NCBI GenBank assembly: GCA_036405175.1
Contig: DASWYC010000002.1
Coordinates: 187,429 to 251,428, forward strand
Direction of reading: 5' to 3'
DNA from: Minisyncoccota bacterium
GTDB taxonomy: Bacteria; Patescibacteriota; Minisyncoccia; Phycocordibacterales; UBA1006
DNA: 64,000 nt
The position numbers and the translations under genes were made by a program. Below are positions 15,056-24,029 of the stretch, in pieces. The notes below the pieces were generated by a model. It ran no database searches. It was not told the origin of the DNA and was given only the letters and a program-made list of their open reading frames with translations. Positions within the stretch are counted from its first letter, which is position 1. Each line of letters begins with the position of its first letter.

Positions 15056-15183
15056 ACCTACGCAGTATAGCTTAAAACCAAGCTGATTTCCAGGATCTTT
15101 TAACAATATCTTTTGATAATTAGTGAGTAAATCTGGGCGAGTAGACTCTTGTGTGATATTATCAAGCTATAATGCCGGGATGG

Positions 15184-15267
15184 TGGAATCGGTAGACACG
15201 AGGGACTTAAAATCCCTTTCTAGCAATAGAGTGCGGGTTCGATTCCCGCTCTCGGCACCCGAAGAAT
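15184..15267 (+). tRNA. tRNA-Leu (anticodon TAA), class II with a long variable arm
   Basis: Cloverleaf read by eye: acceptor GCCGGGA/TCTCGGC, anticodon loop CTTAAAA, T-arm GCGGGTTCGATTCCCGC. No CCA is encoded (ACCC). Confidence 0.85.
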
Positions 15268-15714: not shown

Positions 15715-18700
15715 ATGATAGCCTGCCGTTATAATATGAATAGTCACAAAGTTACCTTCGCTGCAGTCTTACCAACTGTTTCTTATAAGGTTTTTCAGCG
15801 TCTTTTGACGTATTTTTTATTACTATTTTTTACCATTAATCCATTCGTCTCCATTGTATCTGCCGCTGAGATTGGTCATAATCCACAAGTCTCAAGCTAT
15901 GATACGGTGGTGGATGGTATTGGGCAGTCGCCGAATACTTCCGTAACTACTCCTTCTGGAGCTTTGCCCTTAAATACGCCAGTGGCACCTCTTTCATCTT
16001 CAGCACAAGTTGAAATTTCCTCAGGAGCATTTGTCGATGCATATGACTTTAATCTTCCTAAGGGACCTGGAGGTATTATCCCGCCCCTTGCACTTTCATA
16101 CGATTCACGTCGCAGAAATTATGATGGGTCTTTTGGTATAGGGTTTACTCTGGATATTCCGACCATTTCTCGTATTAATAAGTTTGGTATTGATCGCATG
16201 TATGAAGATAGCTCTTTTTCTTCCAGCATTCATGGTGAGTTGGTAAAGTTAAGTAAAGAACAAGATGCATACGGAGTGTATGGAGTGAAGAATGGTTATG
16301 GACGCTACATATTTAATCGAGACAATTCATGGAGTTATATCAACAAAGAAGGTGTAACCTATGTATTTGGGGCAAAGAGTACAGAGCGTGAATTTATCTC
16401 AACTGATGATACAAAGATTTCCCAATGGAATCTTTCAACAATTACTGATCCGTATAAGCACACGTATAGATATGTTTACGATAAGGTGTCAGAAAAACTT
16501 TTCCCAATTGCCATCTTGTATCCAAATGATATTTATAAAGTTGATATCGGGTGGAATCGTGCACCTCAAACGACGCTAACTTACGAAAATGGGTATGGAC
16601 AAGGTGTTGGTTCTCGTCGTGCTACTCAGGTTACGTTGAGCGCTTTAGGTGTTATGTATAGGACTCATGCATTTACATTCAATCCATCTACGCTCCGTTT
16701 GGAAAAAATTACAGATTCTGTGTTGGGTGATACAGTATTCACGTATACAGACATTGAAAATCCTCGCAATGCAGTTGTTGTAGAAAAGCCATTGTGGAAT
16801 GTCACTCAGCATCGTGTGGATATTGACGGTGATGGCCAGCAAGATATTTATCGAGTAGAAGCTAATACTACACCCACCAAGCGAACACTTACTATTGGCA
16901 CTACGGTATACCAGAACATGCCGCAGTTTGATGGCTTTGCTGATATAAATAATGACGGTGCTGTAGATGGATATAGTACTGATGGATGTTATCGAACGTA
17001 TCAGGGTAATGGGGTGTTTAGTGCAGCAATTTGTAATCTTGGGCTTATTGTTGGAGATAAGATGATTTTTGAAGATATTAATAATGATGGAATTATCGAA
17101 TATATTACTGCTGCTCAGGGGCACCTCAAAGTATATACGTTCAAGGATGGGAAATATACATTAAATCCATCTATGAAAGCTGTTGGGGGAACTATGTGGG
17201 ACGACCTAACAAATAGCTATATGGCAACTTTTGATGTGAACGGCGATAATCAAAAAGATATTTTGATTGGCGGCGATGCATATCTTAATAGAGGAGTGTT
17301 CTTTGAATTTTCAAATAACTACCAAGTAGATACTTCAAATAGATATTATTTCCCTAATGCCGGAAAGTTGGAATATCAATATATATTAACGCCCGTTGAT
17401 TATAACGGTGATGGTCTGCTTGAAATTAAAATCGATGAAAACTGGAAAGAACAATGTTCAAGTAGCGGTACAGGCTGGTGCGCAAAAGTGAATACTCAGA
17501 AATTCTTGAATAGCGGGCACGGATGGATTGCTGTTAATGTTGATTATTGGAATAACTTTACTTCATTTACTCAAGAAAAGGTTCCTCTTATTACAAAAGT
17601 TGCGGATGCTCGTCTTGAGACAGATGTTGTTTATGGACTCGAAGATATTGCAAAAAGTAATATTTTAGGAAGTATTAAGAAGGTTATTGTTGTGAAATCA
17701 ATCACAAGTCCATATAGTCAAACAAATTATAGTTACACCAATGGAAAGTACTACTTTAACCAGAAAGAACAAACCAGTGAGTTTGCCGGCTTTGAGACGG
17801 TGGTGGCCACTGACGGGTTAGGGCGCAAATCAATTTCGTATTTCCATCAGGGAAATGATACGAATACCGCCAAGGGAGAATTTGAAGATTCGCGCTATAA
17901 AATTGGGCGAACATTCCGCCAAGAATTCTATGGTGCTACCGGAACATTACTCAAAACTATCACCACTAAGTGGATTCAGGCGGATTTAGGATCTGAACGA
18001 TATTTGGTGGTGCCGGAATACACCTCACAGCTGATTGATGGTGTAGGTACGGCGGTTGGCTATACGTATGATACTGCGGTGGGAGAGTTGGTTCGCCAAT
18101 ATAATTTTGGTGACGCAACGGTGAATACTGACGGATCATTCACTGATGTTGGCATCGACCTTGTGATTACTAAATATCATTACAAAACCAATGGAGCGTT
18201 GGTAGTGCGTGATGAAGAGCAGCGTGAACGTAATGGTGAGCAGCTTTTTCATGGGCGCTATACATATAACCCGGCATTAACTCAACTGGTTAAAGAAGAA
18301 GTATCAGAAATGCCCGGATCATTTGCGAGCAGAACTTTCTCATACACAAGTGATGGAAGCTTGAGTAGCTCTACTGATTTTATGGGGAATACTACTACCT
18401 ATACATATGATAGCTATAAATTCCTTCCAAAGACAATCACTAATGCGCTGGGTCATATAACGACGCTTGAGTATAACTATGTAGTTCAAAAACCAATCAA
18501 AGTTGTTACACCTGATGCTATTACGTCAACCTATGTCTATGATCTGCTTGGTAATGAGCTTGAATACTACCGCAATGGAGTAAAAGAAAGAGTTGCTTCT
18601 GTTTCAAATAACTTTAAAGATTACACATATTCTCAAACTCTTAATACGAGTACCAGTATCCCTGCAAGTGACACATATGTTCAAAAAGTAGTTAATCATG

Positions 18701-21700
18701 ATGGGCTTATGCGTCCTGTCTATGAGCGTGATACTGACGGTAACCATATAGCGACTACATACGATCAGTATGGACGCGTGGCAGAGAAAACTATTCCCTA
18801 CACAGGTATGCTTACTGATAGTAAAAAAATAAGATTTACATATGACGATTTAGATCGTGTGATTACTCAGACTACTGTGGATGGCGTAACTCGCTATGCT
18901 TATAACGGACGTACGGTGACGATAACCAGTCCGTCGGACACGATAAAAATGATGGAATATGATAGCGCAGGTAACTTAATTGCGGCGACTGAAGGTGGAT
19001 TTACAACACGGTATACCTATAACGGTAATAATAATCTTGTTAAGCTCGTTGATCAGGAAGGAAATATTAAAGAACAGTCATTTAATCTGCTTGGTCGCAA
19101 ACTCATGACAACTGACCTTCGTAAATCAATAGCCGCTGACTATGGGCGATACTATTTTGTGTATGATCGCAACGGTAATCTTACTCAAGAAATAAAACCA
19201 GGAAATGTAACCGTACTTCATACTTATGATACGCTTGGCCGCTCAAAAACTACCACATCAGGAGAGGATACTATTACGTATACATATGATACCTGTATGC
19301 CAGGCAAACTCTGTTCAGAAACACGCGGAGCGTATTATTCAAAAACTTATACATATACTCCTAAGGGGCAAATAAAAACAGTTACTGAAAAGATTCATGA
19401 TAAAACCAGTATTGTTCAATATGAATATATGGGTGCAGGGGATTTGGTAACAAAAATTACCTACCCTGGCAATATTATCATCACATATGAATATCAAAAG
19501 GATAAATTGGTGCAGATAAAGAAAAATGGAACGTCGCTATTAAGCTCTGTTCAGTACGACTTTGGACGTCTTAAACAACTTCAGTTTGCAAACGGTCTTA
19601 AAACGGTAAATGCGTATAATGAAAATAATTTATATCGCCTTTCGCAGCGTGTGACTACAAATAGTGGAAATACAAAGTTACAAGATATTGGCTATACGTA
19701 TAACTCTTTAGGAATGATTGCTAGCCTTGTTGATTCATCAGATACTCCAACTAAAAAATCAGTTACCTACGTATATGATGATGTGCAGCGTCTCCTAACT
19801 GTTACATATACTATTAGCTCTGATACTACTACAGAAAACTTCACTTACTCTCCATCAGGTAACTTACTTAGTTCGCCTCGTGGAACAATGACGTATGGAG
19901 AAACTGTATCGCCTCAACAGATGAATATGGAGGTGATTGTACCCGAAGAAGAGCAAGCTCAGTCATCTCAGCAGGCCTCAGAGAATCCACCGATTATTCA
20001 TCCAGAAAACCCAGAGTCACCTATCATGCCAACGGTGCCTTCAGGAAATAGTAATGGTCGTAATGATGAAGTTTCATATCGCCATTCCAAATGGAACCCA
20101 GGTGGCTTGCTTAAGGCAACAATCGCATATGCAGAAGAAGTTAAAGTAGGTGAAGAGTCGGGCAGAAATGATCAAGAAATAGCATTAGATTTGGATCAAG
20201 AGCCCGAGTCATCGTTACAAAACCAAACTCTACAGGAAAAAGCCTTGTCTACCTGTGGTGAAGATGGAGTGTTAATCGCTGATTGTGTTATTTCACAACA
20301 ACAAGCTGATCCTATTGAATGTCTGCCGCCAGGTATTTTGGCATCTGGGCGATGCCTCATGCCCGAATCATGGACAAATTCAGAAACTTCTTGTCCTCCT
20401 GCATCTGAAAGATGCTCCGCTATAGTGAATGTTAACTGTTTGGAAAATGAAGTGCCCACCGATGGTGGATGTGCAAGAAAAGTGACGGCAATGCTTGCTT
20501 CTGACAGTGTCGACAGTGATCCGCTCACTCTTGATCAATTGGTTGATCGTCTGCGTGGCAAACTTATTACCATTTATCAAACAGGTAGTGGTATGCTCAT
20601 GACTCTTATTAATGGTGAATCAGGTGAAACAGGGGTGCGTATCCGTAATGATATTGCAGGCAAAGTTGTAATGCCACGCGATGCACAAACTATTGCCGTC
20701 AGCTTTGAAAAGGCGCTTTCCGTAGTACCAACTATTACTATTACACCTCAGGGTCCGATTACTGGAACACCATATATTACCAGCGTAAGCACTACTGGAT
20801 TCACAATTAATGTGACGTCGCCAGTGTTGCAAGATGTGATATTCCATTACTATGCATTTGGTATCCCAGAGTCAGAGTTACAAACTGTGGGAACCATTCC
20901 TCAGCCAACAACTCCAACCGAGCCGTCGGAAACTGAATGTCCTCTTGGATTTGAAAAAGATGCACAACAAAATTGTATTCCCGAGGTGGACACAAGTGAT
21001 CCTGTAGAAGTAGTACATCCACATGCCGTAACCTCCCAAGAAAAAGATGGGAGTGTTACAAGCTACACCTATGATGCGCGAGGTAATCTCTTGAATGATG
21101 GAACTTATACGTATGTGTGGAGTAATCTTAATGAATTGATGTCATCTCAAGATACTAATACAACAGTTCGTTATAACTACTCACCATCACATGATAAGAT
21201 TTATGAGGAAGAAGTGAGTGGTGACACAGGCTCACCGATGATTAATAAAACATACTTCTTTAGCTCTTTAATTAATCGTAATGGAATGATTGAGATTGCA
21301 TTGCCATACGGTATTGTGTTAAAAAATGGCACACCAATATATACGTTTACTGATCATCTTGGTACGGTACAGGTAATTGCTAATCAAGCCGGAGTCGCAA
21401 CTGATGTATTTGATACGTATGCTTATGGTGATGAGCGAGTGAAAACCGGTACGACAGATGCCAAGTACGCACTTCATGAGTACGACAATAATCTTATTTA
21501 TATGAAAGCGCGCTATTATGATCCAGCAACCGGTTCATTTATCTCACAGGACCCAACCGTCTTGCTTGCACCAGAACAATATATTGGGGATCCATTACAG
21601 CTTAATGCGTATGGATATGCGCGCGGGAATCCAGTGATGCATAATGATCCAGATGGAAATCAAGCTGTAGCTGCTATGGTAATTGCACCCGCTCTTGAAT

Positions 21701-22278
21701 CTTCTGCTATGCTTGCTCTTTTAGGAAGCTCTGCAACATGGTTGAGTAGGAGCCGCGATACGATGCTTCTGCCGCTTATGGGTATGCATTATTTGATGAG
21801 TAGGGCGACCGAGAATAACCAGCCGCTTCCTATTCCGCAAGGTTTATCGCTTCCATATGTGCCAAATCCTGAAGATCCAGATGATTTTCTAAAATCTGTA
21901 GATGAATCTAGACGAAATGGGCATGTGAGAAGTAAGCACGTCAAAAATAGTAGAAGTAATCTACTGCAGGAGCTTGAGAGTAATCCAAATTCTGATGGAG
22001 CAACAAGCTTTCGCTCAAGTAAGACTGCTGAGCAAGCTATTAAGAATGGTCTAAATAATAATCAAAGTCATATCAATAACTTTTTGAATAACGAAAGGGT
22101 GGGTGAAAGAACATTTATTGATTATAATACAGGCAATAGTATTGGGTATGGATACACAAAGTTGGCTACAGGAGAAATAATTAAAGTAAATTCAATTAAA
22201 GTAGTTAGAATTGTGATAGAAAAAATGTCGAGAGCGAATTATAAGATAATTACAAGTTTTCCAAAAGCTGGAATATAG
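15715..22278 (+). CDS. Giant secreted polymorphic toxin, Tc-toxin TcB/TcC-like. From N to C it has a SpvB-type domain, an FG-GAP-like beta-propeller, YD/RHS repeats with a Cys-rich insertion, an RHS repeat-associated core ending in DPDGN, and a variable C-terminal toxin domain
   Basis: 2187 aa. There is an N-terminal signal/TM segment (FLLLFFTINPFVSIVSAAEIG). The SpvB signature is SSGAFVDAYDFNLPKGPGGIIPPLALSYDSRRRNYDGSFGIGFTLDIPTISRI. FG-GAP-like repeats include DIDGDGQQDIY, DINNDGAVDGY, DINNDGIIEYI, DVNGDNQKDILIGG and DYNGDGLLEI. Many YD repeats are present (YTYD.., YVYDRNGNL.., YTYDARGNLL). The RHS core reads TDHLGTVQVIAN...ARYYDPATGSFISQDP...NAYGYARGNPVMHNDPDGN, followed by a 205-aa unique tail. 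Confidence 0.9.
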   Translation: MIACRYNMNSHKVTFAAVLPTVSYKVFQRLLTYFLLLFFTINPFVSIVSAAEIGHNPQVSSYDTVVDGIGQSPNTSVTTPSGALPLNTPVAPLSSSAQVEISSGAFVDAYDFNLPKGPGGIIPPLALSYDSRRRNYDGSFGIGFTLDIPTISRINKFGIDRMYEDSSFSSSIHGELVKLSKEQDAYGVYGVKNGYGRYIFNRDNSWSYINKEGVTYVFGAKSTEREFISTDDTKISQWNLSTITDPYKHTYRYVYDKVSEKLFPIAILYPNDIYKVDIGWNRAPQTTLTYENGYGQGVGSRRATQVTLSALGVMYRTHAFTFNPSTLRLEKITDSVLGDTVFTYTDIENPRNAVVVEKPLWNVTQHRVDIDGDGQQDIYRVEANTTPTKRTLTIGTTVYQNMPQFDGFADINNDGAVDGYSTDGCYRTYQGNGVFSAAICNLGLIVGDKMIFEDINNDGIIEYITAAQGHLKVYTFKDGKYTLNPSMKAVGGTMWDDLTNSYMATFDVNGDNQKDILIGGDAYLNRGVFFEFSNNYQVDTSNRYYFPNAGKLEYQYILTPVDYNGDGLLEIKIDENWKEQCSSSGTGWCAKVNTQKFLNSGHGWIAVNVDYWNNFTSFTQEKVPLITKVADARLETDVVYGLEDIAKSNILGSIKKVIVVKSITSPYSQTNYSYTNGKYYFNQKEQTSEFAGFETVVATDGLGRKSISYFHQGNDTNTAKGEFEDSRYKIGRTFRQEFYGATGTLLKTITTKWIQADLGSERYLVVPEYTSQLIDGVGTAVGYTYDTAVGELVRQYNFGDATVNTDGSFTDVGIDLVITKYHYKTNGALVVRDEEQRERNGEQLFHGRYTYNPALTQLVKEEVSEMPGSFASRTFSYTSDGSLSSSTDFMGNTTTYTYDSYKFLPKTITNALGHITTLEYNYVVQKPIKVVTPDAITSTYVYDLLGNELEYYRNGVKERVASVSNNFKDYTYSQTLNTSTSIPASDTYVQKVVNHDGLMRPVYERDTDGNHIATTYDQYGRVAEKTIPYTGMLTDSKKIRFTYDDLDRVITQTTVDGVTRYAYNGRTVTITSPSDTIKMMEYDSAGNLIAATEGGFTTRYTYNGNNNLVKLVDQEGNIKEQSFNLLGRKLMTTDLRKSIAADYGRYYFVYDRNGNLTQEIKPGNVTVLHTYDTLGRSKTTTSGEDTITYTYDTCMPGKLCSETRGAYYSKTYTYTPKGQIKTVTEKIHDKTSIVQYEYMGAGDLVTKITYPGNIIITYEYQKDKLVQIKKNGTSLLSSVQYDFGRLKQLQFANGLKTVNAYNENNLYRLSQRVTTNSGNTKLQDIGYTYNSLGMIASLVDSSDTPTKKSVTYVYDDVQRLLTVTYTISSDTTTENFTYSPSGNLLSSPRGTMTYGETVSPQQMNMEVIVPEEEQAQSSQQASENPPIIHPENPESPIMPTVPSGNSNGRNDEVSYRHSKWNPGGLLKATIAYAEEVKVGEESGRNDQEIALDLDQEPESSLQNQTLQEKALSTCGEDGVLIADCVISQQQADPIECLPPGILASGRCLMPESWTNSETSCPPASERCSAIVNVNCLENEVPTDGGCARKVTAMLASDSVDSDPLTLDQLVDRLRGKLITIYQTGSGMLMTLINGESGETGVRIRNDIAGKVVMPRDAQTIAVSFEKALSVVPTITITPQGPITGTPYITSVSTTGFTINVTSPVLQDVIFHYYAFGIPESELQTVGTIPQPTTPTEPSETECPLGFEKDAQQNCIPEVDTSDPVEVVHPHAVTSQEKDGSVTSYTYDARGNLLNDGTYTYVWSNLNELMSSQDTNTTVRYNYSPSHDKIYEEEVSGDTGSPMINKTYFFSSLINRNGMIEIALPYGIVLKNGTPIYTFTDHLGTVQVIANQAGVATDVFDTYAYGDERVKTGTTDAKYALHEYDNNLIYMKARYYDPATGSFISQDPTVLLAPEQYIGDPLQLNAYGYARGNPVMHNDPDGNQAVAAMVIAPALESSAMLALLGSSATWLSRSRDTMLLPLMGMHYLMSRATENNQPLPIPQGLSLPYVPNPEDPDDFLKSVDESRRNGHVRSKHVKNSRSNLLQELESNPNSDGATSFRSSKTAEQAIKNGLNNNQSHINNFLNNERVGERTFIDYNTGNSIGYGYTKLATGEIIKVNSIKVVRIVIEKMSRANYKIITSFPKAGI

Positions 22279-22302
22279 CTATGTAAGTAATAAATATTAT
22301 TT

Positions 22303-22662
22303 ATGAATAACTTTCAAGACAAAGGAGTTAATACATTATGGGATACTCTCACGGGTGCGTACTTAGATCAGCATTATCCCTATGAATTTGGAACATATGA
22401 GAATGCAATACGTGAGTTTATAAAGTTTTATATTTTAGAAATTGATGAATTTATTAAAAACACCGAAGCAATGATTCAAAATGAAGCAGACTTAAAGTTT
22501 TTTATGTCCAATTCAGACTTTAAAATACATCGTAGTGAGGAATTTAAAAAGATGAATCCGCACTATGAAGAGTATCAGATGAAAAGATTCCTTAAAATCT
22601 TTGAAGATTTGAAATCTCAGTATCAAAAGATGAAGGAAGAAGGTTCAATTTCTAAGGCATAA
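22303..22662 (+). CDS. Putative cognate immunity protein for the upstream RHS C-terminal toxin
   Basis: A 119-aa acidic ORF starting 24 nt after the toxin stop. It has an ATG start and a strong terminator right after it. The position is typical of Rhs/CDI immunity genes. I recognise no family. Confidence 0.5.
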   Translation: MNNFQDKGVNTLWDTLTGAYLDQHYPYEFGTYENAIREFIKFYILEIDEFIKNTEAMIQNEADLKFFMSNSDFKIHRSEEFKKMNPHYEEYQMKRFLKIFEDLKSQYQKMKEEGSISKA

Positions 22663-22666
22663 ACTC

Positions 22667-22699
22667 AAATCAAAAACCACTTTTCGTGGTTTTTGATTT
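22667..22699 (+). terminator. Intrinsic terminator
   Basis: aaatcaaaaaccac-ttttc-gtggtttttgattt. Confidence 0.75.
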
Positions 22700-22713
22700 A
22701 CTAGCCAAATTTG

Positions 22714-23322
22714 ATGAAAGGTGTACACTACAAGAGTATGAAGAAATACACCAATATCATCATTCTTTTAAGTATTATCATAATTGGACTTGTAGTTTAT
22801 ATTATCGCTAATAACCGTAAGAGCGTTGACGTTGACACCATGACCACATCGGAGGAAATGGTAACAACGCCCGTTGGTGAACAATCCACCACTACTACGT
22901 CTTCAACACCGGTAAAAAAGACTACAACCTCAACACCTAAGAAGACAACCACCGCAACAACGTCTCCAACACCATCAATTAACAAGACATTGTTGGAGAA
23001 TAATCCCTACGTACCATACGGATTCTATATCCAAACACCAACCGGGTATCGTTTGCGACCTTCAACTGATTCTGTAACCGGAAACGTAACGGTTGGATAT
23101 CCAGATGGAGTAATTATGTATGTTAAAGATGCCGCTAAGTATGAGCAATCAACCGTTGTTCCAAAGTATAAATATCTAGGAACAACTAAGGTTGGAGGAA
23201 ATACCTTTAAGACCTATACCTACGGAACCATGACCTACTACTGGATCACTGATGGCAATGAAGGATACGAAATCATTACCACCAAAAAAGATTCATTAAG
23301 TACGTTTGAGATTTTAGAATAA
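22714..23322 (+). CDS. Membrane-anchored protein with a Thr/Ser/Pro-rich (mucin-like) linker and a beta-rich C-terminal domain
   Basis: The N-terminal TM is IIILLSIIIIGLVVYII, then TTPVGEQSTTTTSSTPVKKTTTSTPKKTTTATTSPTPS, then a roughly 110-aa Tyr/Gly/Thr-rich domain. The track start at 22711 is TTG, and an ATG lies at 22714. Confidence 0.5.
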   Translation: MKGVHYKSMKKYTNIIILLSIIIIGLVVYIIANNRKSVDVDTMTTSEEMVTTPVGEQSTTTTSSTPVKKTTTSTPKKTTTATTSPTPSINKTLLENNPYVPYGFYIQTPTGYRLRPSTDSVTGNVTVGYPDGVIMYVKDAAKYEQSTVVPKYKYLGTTKVGGNTFKTYTYGTMTYYWITDGNEGYEIITTKKDSLSTFEILE

Positions 23323-23340
23323 AAACATGCTTATTCACGT

Positions 23341-23376
23341 AAAACCCACCAGAGATGGTGGGTTTTGACTTTTTTA
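23341..23376 (+). terminator. Intrinsic terminator
   Basis: aaaacccacc-agagat-ggtgggtttt followed by gactttttt. Confidence 0.7.
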
Positions 23377-23429: not shown

Positions 23430-24029
23430 ATGCAGCTGATTAATATATTTCATAATCAAGTCTTTGCTCAGGCTATGATTGTATTGATATTTCTCCTTAT
23501 AGTAGCCGTATGGTCTTACTTTGGAAATATTGATAAAACAAGCCCTGGGTACATCGCTAAACAAATTAAAAAACAGGATAAGCGGAATATTCGATATATA
23601 AAAGATATCCTAAAAGGTCACTACATAAAACTAACCAAGGAGCAAATAGCTCAATTTATCGAAAAGTATTCCGTATGGGTCCAACAAGAAAAACAGCTTG
23701 TATCAACAACTTCTAAAGAGCGATTATTCAGACAAGGACAATATCGCAATGAATTTAAAGTTAGTTTTATGTTTCTTGATGAATTATTGCCCGAAGAAGA
23801 GTCTCCGTTCAAGCTTGCCTTTAAAGATGCATTTACTGAACCATTTCCTTCAACTCATGATATGGACGATTGGGCATTTGTAAATAAAGTAACAGATATT
23901 CTTGCTTTGAAAGGATATAACCCTCGGGAAGAACGCCTTGTTGCTTTGGTACACAAAAAAGAACATTTTGTGAATCATGATATTACAACGGGAATCATTA
24001 TTTTTGATATCTACCTTCTTGAAGAATAA
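23430..24029 (+). CDS. Hypothetical membrane-anchored protein (199 aa)
   Basis: N-terminal TM (FAQAMIVLIFLLIVAVWSYF). I recognise no family. Confidence 0.45.
   Translation: MQLINIFHNQVFAQAMIVLIFLLIVAVWSYFGNIDKTSPGYIAKQIKKQDKRNIRYIKDILKGHYIKLTKEQIAQFIEKYSVWVQQEKQLVSTTSKERLFRQGQYRNEFKVSFMFLDELLPEEESPFKLAFKDAFTEPFPSTHDMDDWAFVNKVTDILALKGYNPREERLVALVHKKEHFVNHDITTGIIIFDIYLLEE

Follow-up and report, generated by a model that had tools for sequence, protein, structure and literature searches.

An RHS toxin gene with an RNase A-like C-terminal domain and a putative, far-diverged CdiI_2-type immunity gene in a Candidatus Paceibacterota genome

Organization of the RHS toxin locus

The stretch of DNA analyzed here, hereafter the window, comprises 64 kb of the genome of an ultra-small Candidatus Paceibacterota bacterium (CPR/Patescibacteria). 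It contains a gene for an RHS/YD-repeat polymorphic toxin of 2187 aa (15715-22278, stop codon TAG at 22276-22278), which like all features described below lies on the forward strand. Pfam searches of the encoded protein showed matches to SpvB, FG-GAP_3, RHS_repeat (five times) and RNAse_A_bac, and NCBIfam added TIGR01643 and TIGR03696. Besides the SpvB-like and FG-GAP regions the protein carries a variable insert of about 400 aa; PAAR, VgrG, LXG or TPS domains were not detected with Pfam. Reading of the first 50 residues (15715-15864) suggests a Sec signal peptide with a basic n-region KVFQR, a hydrophobic core LLTYFLLLFFTINPFVSIV and a cleavage-like site between VSA and AE. An identical layout, with the site between ASA and QE, is seen at the N-terminus of the ortholog from a sister genome.

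The RHS-associated core (21418-21660; TIGR03696, residues 1902-1981, E = 6e-14) ends with DPDGN, an autoproteolysis-type motif at residues 1978-1982 (21646-21660). YD/RHS repeats, a core terminated by a DPxGx motif and a variable C-terminal domain, which characterize RHS/YD polymorphic toxins, are thus all present. The motif is followed by a tail of 205 aa (21661-22275, pI 9.5), which starts with QAVAAMVIAPALESSAMLALLGSSATWL and includes GHVRSKHVKNSRSN. The first 86 aa of the tail form a pre-toxin linker (21661-21918) consisting of a hydrophobic stretch AVAAMVIAPALESSAMLALLGSSATWL and a highly conserved junction PNPEDPDDFLKSVDESR. No Pfam match was obtained in this linker, AlphaFold2 (AF2) pLDDT is below 50 over tail residues 1-68, and the segment 21837-21926 is about 91% identical to the sister genome at the nucleotide level. 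The last 119 aa (residues 2069-2187, 21919-22278, pI 10.0) constitute the toxin domain.

Downstream of the RHS stop codon a spacer of 24 nt leads to the ATG of a second ORF of 119 aa (22303-22662), and the unit is closed by a terminator-like hairpin at 22667-22699 with a perfect stem of 14 bp and a loop of 5 nt. The hairpin is strong (dG -19 kcal/mol, z = -6.4) and none of 200 shuffled sequences was as stable. It escaped a simple terminator scan, since the T-run is located inside the 3' arm and not after it. The positions of DPDGN, tail, small ORF and spacer given in the first-pass annotation were all correct, and the hairpin lies where it had placed a terminator for the small ORF. The ORF had also been described as acidic, which holds in a mild form only (pI 5.2, 21 D+E vs 16 K+R).

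According to tblastn the C-terminal domain, the 119-aa ORF and the RHS core each occur only once in the window, so that orphan cassettes of C-terminal domain and immunity gene, an arrangement considered in the first-pass annotation, are absent from these 64 kb. The conserved linker motif EDPDDFLKSVDE was absent in a metagenome scan, and scanning genome contigs with linker-derived peptide patterns confirmed no relative. The RHS genes retrieved in a scan with the RHS-core motif were all unrelated and carried different C-terminal domains.

The C-terminal domain is a bacterial RNase A-like toxin domain

The toxin domain matches PF18431 (RNAse_A_bac) over profile positions 1-113 of 113 with 77.3 bits at a cutoff of 27 (E = 2e-21), and the sister ortholog scores 77.1 bits. 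With phmmer against the PDB the toxin chain of Yersinia kristensenii (5E3E_B) was found at E = 2.6e-8. The AF2 model has pLDDT values above 90 over tail residues 90-205 and shows the kidney-shaped alpha+beta fold of RNase A-like proteins; in Foldseek the top matches were 5e3e_B/D (E = 8e-8, probability 1.00, TM 0.81-0.82), followed by onconase and RC-RNase4. Since family profile, sequence match to 5E3E_B and predicted fold agree, the domain is a clear member of the known, already-described bacterial RNase A-like family PF18431. The nuclease-type toxin proposed from the sequence alone is thereby specified as an RNase, and the accompanying view that toxin and small ORF lack homology and may represent a new toxin/immunity family does not hold for the toxin. 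Assignment to the Bacillus lipoprotein subgroup RNase_A_lipo was rejected, as NCBIfam scores reached 33-39 bits at a cutoff of 200.

The C-terminal domain alone gave no matches in a word-indexed protein search. Homologs were recovered only with a three-sequence profile including the 5E3E_B sequence. Because of its diversity an alignment of 16 RNase sequences yielded no usable patterns, and a hand-made degenerate motif was used for scanning instead. In Y. kristensenii numbering His175 is present in 87 of 87 aligned homologs and Thr276 in 86 of 87; the window toxin has both. Position 278 is Phe in the window toxin and in 15 of the 87 homologs, and Phe at this position has been reported to be common among homologs (PMC5435912).

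Two positions deviate from the family pattern. Position 177 is Lys in the window toxin vs Gly in 86 of 87 homologs, and position 186 is Glu (LLQEL), where 86 of 87 homologs, the sister ortholog among them, have Arg. The codon is GAG in the window and AGA in the sister ortholog; Glu186 is therefore not a single-base error. Lys177 and Arg180 are new basic residues of the window toxin and are located near position 186 in the sequence. Arg186 has been proposed from mutagenesis as a transition-state stabilizer, and in the prototype the R186A mutant showed lowered RNase activity and abolished growth inhibition (PMC5435912), which suggests that the window toxin is perhaps weakened or works differently. 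Among 20 aligned homologs only His175 and Thr276 were fully conserved, and plasticity of the active site of RNase A-like toxins has been noted (PMC5435912). Because of this restricted conservation Arg186 is probably not strictly defining for PF18431. The exchange of Arg186 for Glu remains a real deviation from the family pattern.

The downstream ORF probably encodes a divergent CdiI_2-type immunity protein

We assessed which genes accompany PF18431 toxins in other genomes. In seven of seven loci a CdiI_2 gene (PF18593) was found 3' of the RNase gene, immediately in six and separated by a transposase-like gene in the remaining one (L013). Among 28 non-redundant ORFs located downstream of the RNase in Acidobacteriota, Bacillus, Luteimonas, Mycobacterium, Pseudomonas and other taxa, 27 encode CdiI_2, and the structure 5e3e_A is itself a member of PF18593. 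CdiI_2 is the usual partner of RNase A-like toxins, present almost everywhere, and the 119-aa ORF occupies the same position directly 3' of a PF18431 toxin.

Direct searches with the ORF were nearly empty. phmmer found a single homolog among 1.84 billion representatives, and a word search returned two proteins only. Neither the ORF nor a profile of ORF and ortholog matched anything in the PDB. The structural model, computed from a two-sequence alignment, is all-alpha with moderate confidence (pLDDT 76.7), and Foldseek found no PDB match at E<4. Against Pfam CdiI_2 the ORF reached 21.1 bits, below the gathering score of 26.7 (E = 5.6e-4, residues 14-62 only); its sister ortholog (P0002) gave no CdiI_2 match at E<=1.

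An independent HMM built from 35 sequences scored the ORF at 14.4 bits in the same register as Pfam, a value equaled by one of 20,000 shuffled sequences, and the ortholog at 7.5 bits, equaled by 71 of 20,000. Alignment to CdiI_2 with hhalign gave P = 2.9e-4, and the cognate immunity structure ranked third of 48,164 for the ORF. With only seven, mostly enterobacterial CdiI_2 sequences the signal was lost (hhalign Prob 0.09%; with the HMM the score of the ORF was equaled or exceeded by 1096 of 20,000 shuffled sequences). Of the family N-terminal motif fLgaYFHQDW..E(F/H)g the corresponding segment LTGAYLDQHYPYEFG retains Gly, Tyr, Gln and Glu-Phe-Gly; Asp21 of the family is changed to His and the preceding His/Asn to Asp, turning HQD into DQH. 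The GCxYxP loop of CdiI_2 is replaced. In a full-length MAFFT alignment the ORF and CdiI_2 also line up at two helices, a central one with EI..L and a C-terminal one with (W/F)L..(V/I). Judged by this sub-threshold but repeated sequence evidence, the ORF most likely encodes a CdiI_2 protein that has diverged far from the family, and the view of the first-pass annotation that it lacks nameable homology and may be part of a new family is not supported.

Several other matches were discarded. A protein of 7722 aa (P0003), in which 14 stretches matched residues 74-102 of the ORF, was regarded as a repeat or coiled-coil artefact. Pfam TcdB_toxin_midN hits with E of 0.15 for the ORF and 0.008 for the ortholog were below cutoff and treated as noise. 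A role in phage defence was rejected since PADLOC models matched neither the toxin nor the ORF nor the two downstream ORFs.

Toxin domain and N-terminal immunity half diverge together

All conservation and divergence figures given here rest on comparison with one sister genome. There an ORF with 80% identity follows the orthologous RHS-RNase gene of 2199 aa, an arrangement found on six contigs. The placement proposed for a cognate immunity gene is accordingly kept next to an orthologous toxin in the only other genome having the ORF, and remote relatives are placed likewise across phyla.

Protein identity to the sister genome is 89-98% for housekeeping neighbors, 71-75% for the RHS body and 50% for the RNase domain. 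Within the immunity protein it is 56% at the N-terminus and 91% at the C-terminus. Sliding nucleotide identity delimits a divergent block at 21927-22436, which covers the RNase domain, the spacer and the first approximately 45 immunity codons, between flanks that are 91-95% identical. Inside the block dS is 2.6 and 1.8 vs 0.43-0.76 in the flanks, and GC content is 0.33 and 0.30 vs 0.40. C-terminal domain and immunity gene thus diversify faster than shell and genome in this one comparison. The dN/dS ratio is 0.16 in the RNase domain and 0.20 in the ORF, which indicates purifying selection on both. RNase domain and N-terminal immunity half behave as a single exchangeable cassette, which diverges fast, is low in GC and is bordered by conserved flanks, as far as a single sister genome shows.

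Discussion

In summary, we consider it probable that the locus encodes a WapA-like RHS polymorphic toxin of Candidatus Paceibacterota that is exported via Sec, and that the region described here is its toxin-immunity end. The 2187-aa protein would be exported via its putative N-terminal signal peptide, and the YD/RHS shell would enclose the C-terminal tail, which, as in the family, would be freed through aspartyl autoproteolysis at the motif that ends in DPDGN. The last 119 residues belong to the bacterial RNase A-like family and would act as a metal-independent RNase, for which CdiA-CT of Y. kristensenii is the prototype; by analogy their substrates may be the tRNA and rRNA of a recipient cell. 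The downstream ORF is probably the cognate immunity protein, a very divergent CdiI_2-type all-helical protein. Its motif GAYLDQHY..EFG may correspond to the segment Tyr17-Gly27 of CdiI(Ykris). There this segment sits as a plug in the active site of the toxin, with Gln20 and Asp21 contacting His175, Thr276 and Tyr278.

Two other readings concern the small ORF. It could belong to an unrelated, lineage-specific immunity family next to a genuine PF18431 RNase, its likeness to CdiI_2 being due to chance or convergence. The single phmmer homolog and the two word-search proteins, the sub-threshold Pfam score with no match for the ortholog and the empty Foldseek result would fit such an origin, as would the fact that two of 35 non-redundant downstream ORFs elsewhere (L102 and L106) also deviate from the motif. 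We regard it as unlikely, however: three sequence methods agree on register and motif, with p between about 1e-4 and 6e-4 and a hypothesis that the gene context had set in advance, the cognate structure ranks near the top of 48,164, and the MAFFT alignment extends to the central and C-terminal helices. A role other than immunity, with the ORF encoding a chaperone or an adaptor or being an unrelated small gene between RHS gene and terminator, is very improbable. The 24-nt spacer indeed lacks an obvious Shine-Dalgarno sequence; position, size, predicted all-alpha fold and net acidity next to a toxin of pI 10 nevertheless fit the pattern of every homologous locus examined, the ORF has persisted beside the toxin in the sister genome, where the two ORFs that follow it are replaced, and its N-terminus co-diverges with the RNase domain.

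A further alternative concerns the toxin, which would be catalytically disabled or strongly attenuated by R186E together with G177K. On this view the locus would either be in decay or serve a different function of the RHS protein, for instance adhesion, and the immunity gene would be kept against toxins of neighbors. Glu186 is unique to the window protein among homologs with Arg in 86 of 87, the prototype does not inhibit growth with R186A (PMC5435912), and the codons argue against a single-base error. Against this, the ORF is intact across 2187 codons, dN/dS in the RNase domain is 0.16, His175 and Thr276 are retained, the active site is known for its plasticity (PMC5435912), and the nearby Lys177 and Arg180 may substitute for the lost arginine. 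Inactivation or strong attenuation seems to us improbable, and an RNase A-like toxin with a CdiI_2-type partner remains the preferred reading.

With toxin and immunity protein so assigned, a more speculative idea would be that their interface was rewired: Arg186 was lost to Glu, Lys177 and Arg180 were gained, the plug triad was inverted from H-Q-D to D-Q-H, and RNase domain and plug-bearing immunity half would have been exchanged as one recombination cassette. We hold this to be doubtful. If the pair is active, it would represent a natural case of coupled remodeling of catalytic site and inhibitor in the RNase A-like family, and a contact-dependent or secreted RNase weapon of a genome-reduced CPR episymbiont, possibly directed against its host or rival symbionts. 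The unique R186E and the sharply bounded co-diverging cassette offer testable hypotheses on the residues required by the RNase and on the half of CdiI_2 that determines specificity. Hardly any publications dealing with RHS toxins of Paceibacterota/CPR were found; an RHS-delivered RNase A-like toxin-immunity pair is now documented in a genome of this group. The immunity protein was recovered only by context-guided profile tests, which calls for caution with counts of "novel immunity families".

Comparison with known systems

The closest known system is CdiA-CT/CdiI of Y. kristensenii ATCC 33638 (PDB 5E3E, PF18431 and PF18593; Batot et al. 2017, PMC5435912). Toxin family by HMM, sequence and predicted fold as well as His175 and Thr276 are shared, the immunity gene, putative in the window, lies directly downstream, and its N-terminal motif aligns with the active-site-contacting segment Tyr17-Gly27. 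Toxin identity is only about 30%, with Arg186 replaced by Glu, Gly177 by Lys and Tyr278 by Phe. The window ORF has 119 aa instead of the 98 aa of CdiI(Ykris), scores below the Pfam threshold, carries His for Asp21 and has a different, longer C-terminal half. Unlike the CdiB/CdiA two-partner system, the window toxin resides on an RHS protein with a putative Sec-type signal in a CPR bacterium.

Rhs proteins with an RNase A-like C-terminal domain have been described for Pseudomonas, Chryseobacterium, Vibrio and Streptomyces malaysiense (PMC5435912). The window protein shares with them the RHS shell, core and RNase A-like domain followed by an immunity gene (putative here). Most of these proteins are T6SS-associated and proteobacterial, whereas the window protein has no PAAR/VgrG-type domains and is similar to the Streptomyces protein, for which Sec dependence has been proposed.

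WapA of Bacillus subtilis is a Sec-exported, wall-associated YD-repeat toxin with a tRNase C-terminal domain and the immunity protein WapI. Its C-terminal domains come from other toxin families, and the window protein differs by its SpvB-like and FG-GAP regions and the variable insert of about 400 aa, with no wall-binding domains identified. In overall organization the two appear alike: a monoderm-style layout with an N-terminal signal peptide (putative here), YD/RHS repeats, a core, a polymorphic C-terminal RNase and a small immunity gene downstream.

Layout of the RHS gene and its surroundings

The RHS ORF (2187 aa, 15715–22278, + strand, stop codon at 22276–22278) combines SpvB-like and FG-GAP regions, five RHS/YD repeats and an RHS-associated core (Pfam, NCBIfam), the latter matching NCBIfam TIGR03696 at residues 1902–1981 and ending in the motif DPDGN (21646–21660, +). 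The tail behind this motif comprises 205 residues, beginning with a hydrophobic stretch and ending in a basic domain (pI 10). Tail residues 1–68 are predicted to be disordered in the AlphaFold2 model and have no family match in Pfam. The 119-aa ORF (22303–22662, +, pI 5.2) starts 24 nt past the RHS stop codon and is followed by a hairpin with a perfect 14-bp stem (22667–22699, +, dG -19 kcal/mol, z -6.4).

Several further features were noticed. An insert of about 400 aa without RHS character separates the YD repeats from the RHS core (19903–21114, RHS residues ~1397–1800). It contains an acidic low-complexity stretch and a Cys-rich segment, shows a weak H-type-lectin-like match (E=0.04) and may act as a variable module at the surface or for receptor binding. 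Within the protein, divergence from the sister genome peaks at RHS residues 1397–1600 (19–35% identity, dN/dS 0.34). A tRNA-Leu(TAA) gene (15173–15260, +), a typical landmark of variable islands, lies between the ThrRS and RHS genes, ~450 bp before the latter begins. Two downstream ORFs (22711–23322, 203 aa, and 23430–24029, 199 aa, both +) have hydrophobic N-terminal segments and no family match in Pfam or the PADLOC models; the 203-aa ORF has a Thr-rich linker, and a strong terminator-like hairpin is found at 23340–23367. Another RHS C-terminus (…AYGYASGNPV…DPLGLW) is encoded on the 681-kb JGI contig Ga0308157_10000026 (locus L136, 119–2007), with a Gly/Ala-rich hydrophobic stretch directly after the cleavage motif, a different C-terminal domain and an overlapping 217-aa downstream ORF. 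Similar hydrophobic stretches occur in two other loci (L134, L135); such a stretch may be a common feature at the start of RHS C-terminal domains.

The toxin domain is a member of the RNase A-like family

The toxin is a member of the known RNase A-like family PF18431 (Bacterial CdiA-CT RNAse A domain), which tail residues 87–201 match over its full length with 77.3 bits (E=2e-21) at a gathering score of 27 bits. The first-pass annotation, whose coordinates are all correct, including those of DPDGN, the 119-aa ORF and the hairpin, had suggested a nuclease-type C-terminal domain, and this match bears it out. Among PDB sequences the RNase domain matches the CdiA-CT nuclease domain from Yersinia kristensenii (chain B of 5E3E; phmmer, E=2.6e-8). 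In its AlphaFold2 model, for which 17 sequences were aligned, pLDDT exceeds 90 throughout the domain, and the top Foldseek matches are 5e3e_B/D (E=8e-8, probability 1.00, TM 0.81–0.82), followed by onconase and RC-RNase4, proteins of the RNase A superfamily.

Activity of the prototype, which cuts down tRNA and rRNA with no metal added, depends on His175, Arg186, Thr276 and Tyr278 (PMC5435912). His175 and Thr276 are present in the window toxin, as in 87/87 and 86/87 aligned homologs, respectively. Residue 278 is Phe, which is shared with 15 of the 87. At two positions the window toxin stands alone among the 87 homologs: it carries Glu for Arg at 186 and Lys for Gly at 177, while the sister-genome ortholog has Arg and Gly. 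The codons at position 186 (GAG in the window, AGA in the ortholog) are at least two bases apart, Glu186 therefore not being a trivial sequencing error.

The usual partner of RNase A-like toxins

With a profile built from three RNase domains, 21 PF18431 proteins were recovered. In all seven loci examined a CdiI_2 gene (PF18593) lies 3' of the RNase gene, directly so in six; at the seventh (L013) a transposase-like gene separates the two. CdiI(Ykris), the prototype immunity protein (5E3E chain A), itself belongs to PF18593 (E=8e-44). Scanning GTDB species genomes with a degenerate motif yielded 89 verified RNase domains, from Acidobacteriota, Bacillus and relatives, Luteimonas/Lysobacter, Mycobacterium, Pseudomonas and others. 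Nearly all of the 95–125-aa ORFs downstream start with the motif fLgaYFHQDW..E, and 27 of 28 non-redundant ones match PF18593 at E<=1e-3. Since a CdiI_2 gene follows nearly every PF18431 toxin, CdiI_2 is the expected partner, which set the hypothesis for the 119-aa ORF.

The ORFs at two loci depart from YFHQDW (L102, YFNWSMDY; L106, WFSEGMDF), and one or both of these, or another member, failed the Pfam test at 1e-3; more divergent immunity sub-types therefore exist.

Relation of the 119-aa ORF to CdiI_2

By ordinary sequence search the 119-aa ORF is nearly an orphan. Besides the ORF itself, a word-indexed search of 5.8 billion proteins returned a single protein, the 80%-identical sister-genome homolog P0002, and exhaustive phmmer against 1.84 billion representatives gave only P0002 again, plus a spurious repeat match. 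Six contigs, belonging to two sample series, encode P0002 directly 3' of the orthologous RHS-RNase gene (2199 aa), in a locus syntenic with the window (ThrRS - RHS - ORF - ... - RbfA - IF-2).

The Pfam CdiI_2 profile aligned residues 14–62 to its positions 6–55 with 21.1 bits (E=5.6e-4), below the cutoff of 26.7 bits, and the ORF is thus no formal Pfam member. A seven-sequence, mostly enterobacterial CdiI_2 profile gave no signal. Against an HMM built from 35 non-redundant immunity proteins of diverse phyla, the ORF obtained 14.4 bits in the register of the Pfam match (residues 16–62), equalled by 1 of 20,000 composition-preserving shuffles; the ortholog P0002 reached 7.5 bits (71 of 20,000). 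Alignment to the immunity family by hhalign gave P=2.9e-4 over columns 14–43. The AlphaFold2 model consists of seven helices at moderate confidence (pLDDT 76.7), for which Foldseek returned no match in the PDB. 3PPB, the closest CdiI(Ykris) homolog named in the 5E3E paper (PMC5435912), also appears in the structure list for the ORF. Because these weak lines are independent, agree on the register and fit the family predicted from context, we consider the 119-aa ORF likely to be a remote CdiI_2 homolog.

In 5E3E the toxin active site is touched by immunity residues Tyr12, Arg15, Cys16, Gln20, Asp21, Glu23 and the Asp74–Tyr78 loop; Asp21 forms a salt bridge to His175 and a hydrogen bond to Thr276, and Gln20 contacts Ser196 and Tyr278 (PMC5435912). 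The family-matching segment of the 119-aa ORF, LTGAYLDQHYPYEFG, would be the corresponding active-site plug. The family's Gly, Tyr, Gln and Glu-Phe-Gly residues are all present in this segment, and its polar triad reads D-Q-H, versus H/N-Q-D in the family. The C-terminal half is longer and without the GCxYxP loop; the central EI..L helix and the terminal (W/F)L..(V/I) helix still align to the family (MAFFT).

Divergence from the sister genome

Flanking housekeeping proteins are 89–98% identical between the two genomes (dS 0.4–0.7), the RHS body 71–75% (dS 1.8–2.8), the pre-toxin linker 60% (dS 0.76) and the RNase domain 50% (dS 2.6). The first 50 residues of the 119-aa ORF show 56% identity (dS 1.8), the remainder 91% (dS 0.43). 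On the nucleotide level a block at ~21927–22436 is 50–65% identical, flanked 5' by a 91% identical junction (21837–21926, encoding PNPEDPDDFLKSVDESR) and 3' by 22437–22646 (92–95%). High dS within the block and low dS in the flanks agree with this mosaic. GC content is 0.33 in the RNase domain, 0.30 in the 119-aa ORF, 0.40 in the RHS body and 0.39 in the window. With one comparison genome and short segments, the pattern carries the signature of a toxin-immunity cassette swapped by recombination, in which the immunity N-terminus would have moved with the toxin. As dN/dS is 0.16 and 0.20, respectively, RNase domain and 119-aa ORF are both constrained.

For the RHS body (15715–21660, against sister locus L001 3385–9560), dS is several-fold above that of the flanking housekeeping genes, which argues for old divergent RHS alleles or recombinational gene replacement and against divergence in place. 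The two ORFs downstream of the immunity gene are effectively unrelated to their positional counterparts in the sister genome (19–24% identity), so the variable region reaches the RbfA/IF-2 genes.

Delivery and comparison with known systems

Pfam searches found no PAAR, VgrG, LXG or TPS domains in the RHS protein. The N-terminus resembles a signal peptide, with a basic stretch, a hydrophobic core of ~19 residues and the site VSA|A, whose counterpart in the ortholog is ASA|Q. From both observations, the protein would most likely leave the cell by the Sec pathway, as a WapA-like RHS toxin that is either surface-bound or secreted. A Sec-type route has likewise been proposed for a Streptomyces Rhs protein with an RNase A-like domain (PMC5435912).

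The reading of the two genes as a toxin-immunity pair is supported, P0002 following the orthologous RHS-RNase gene in the sister locus. The suggestion of a new toxin/immunity family is not supported, given a toxin in PF18431 and a sub-threshold CdiI_2 signal in the 119-aa ORF. For CPR bacteria, the group (phylum Minisyncoccota) to which the source genome belongs, hardly any publications on RHS toxins were found. The combination of RHS, RNase A-like C-terminal domain and immunity gene has been known since 2017 (PMC5435912). The locus is a new divergent member of this known toxin-immunity type in an unusual host lineage, and its remaining interest lies in the unique R186E/G177K exchanges, the inversion of the plug motif and the cassette that co-diverges within sharp boundaries.
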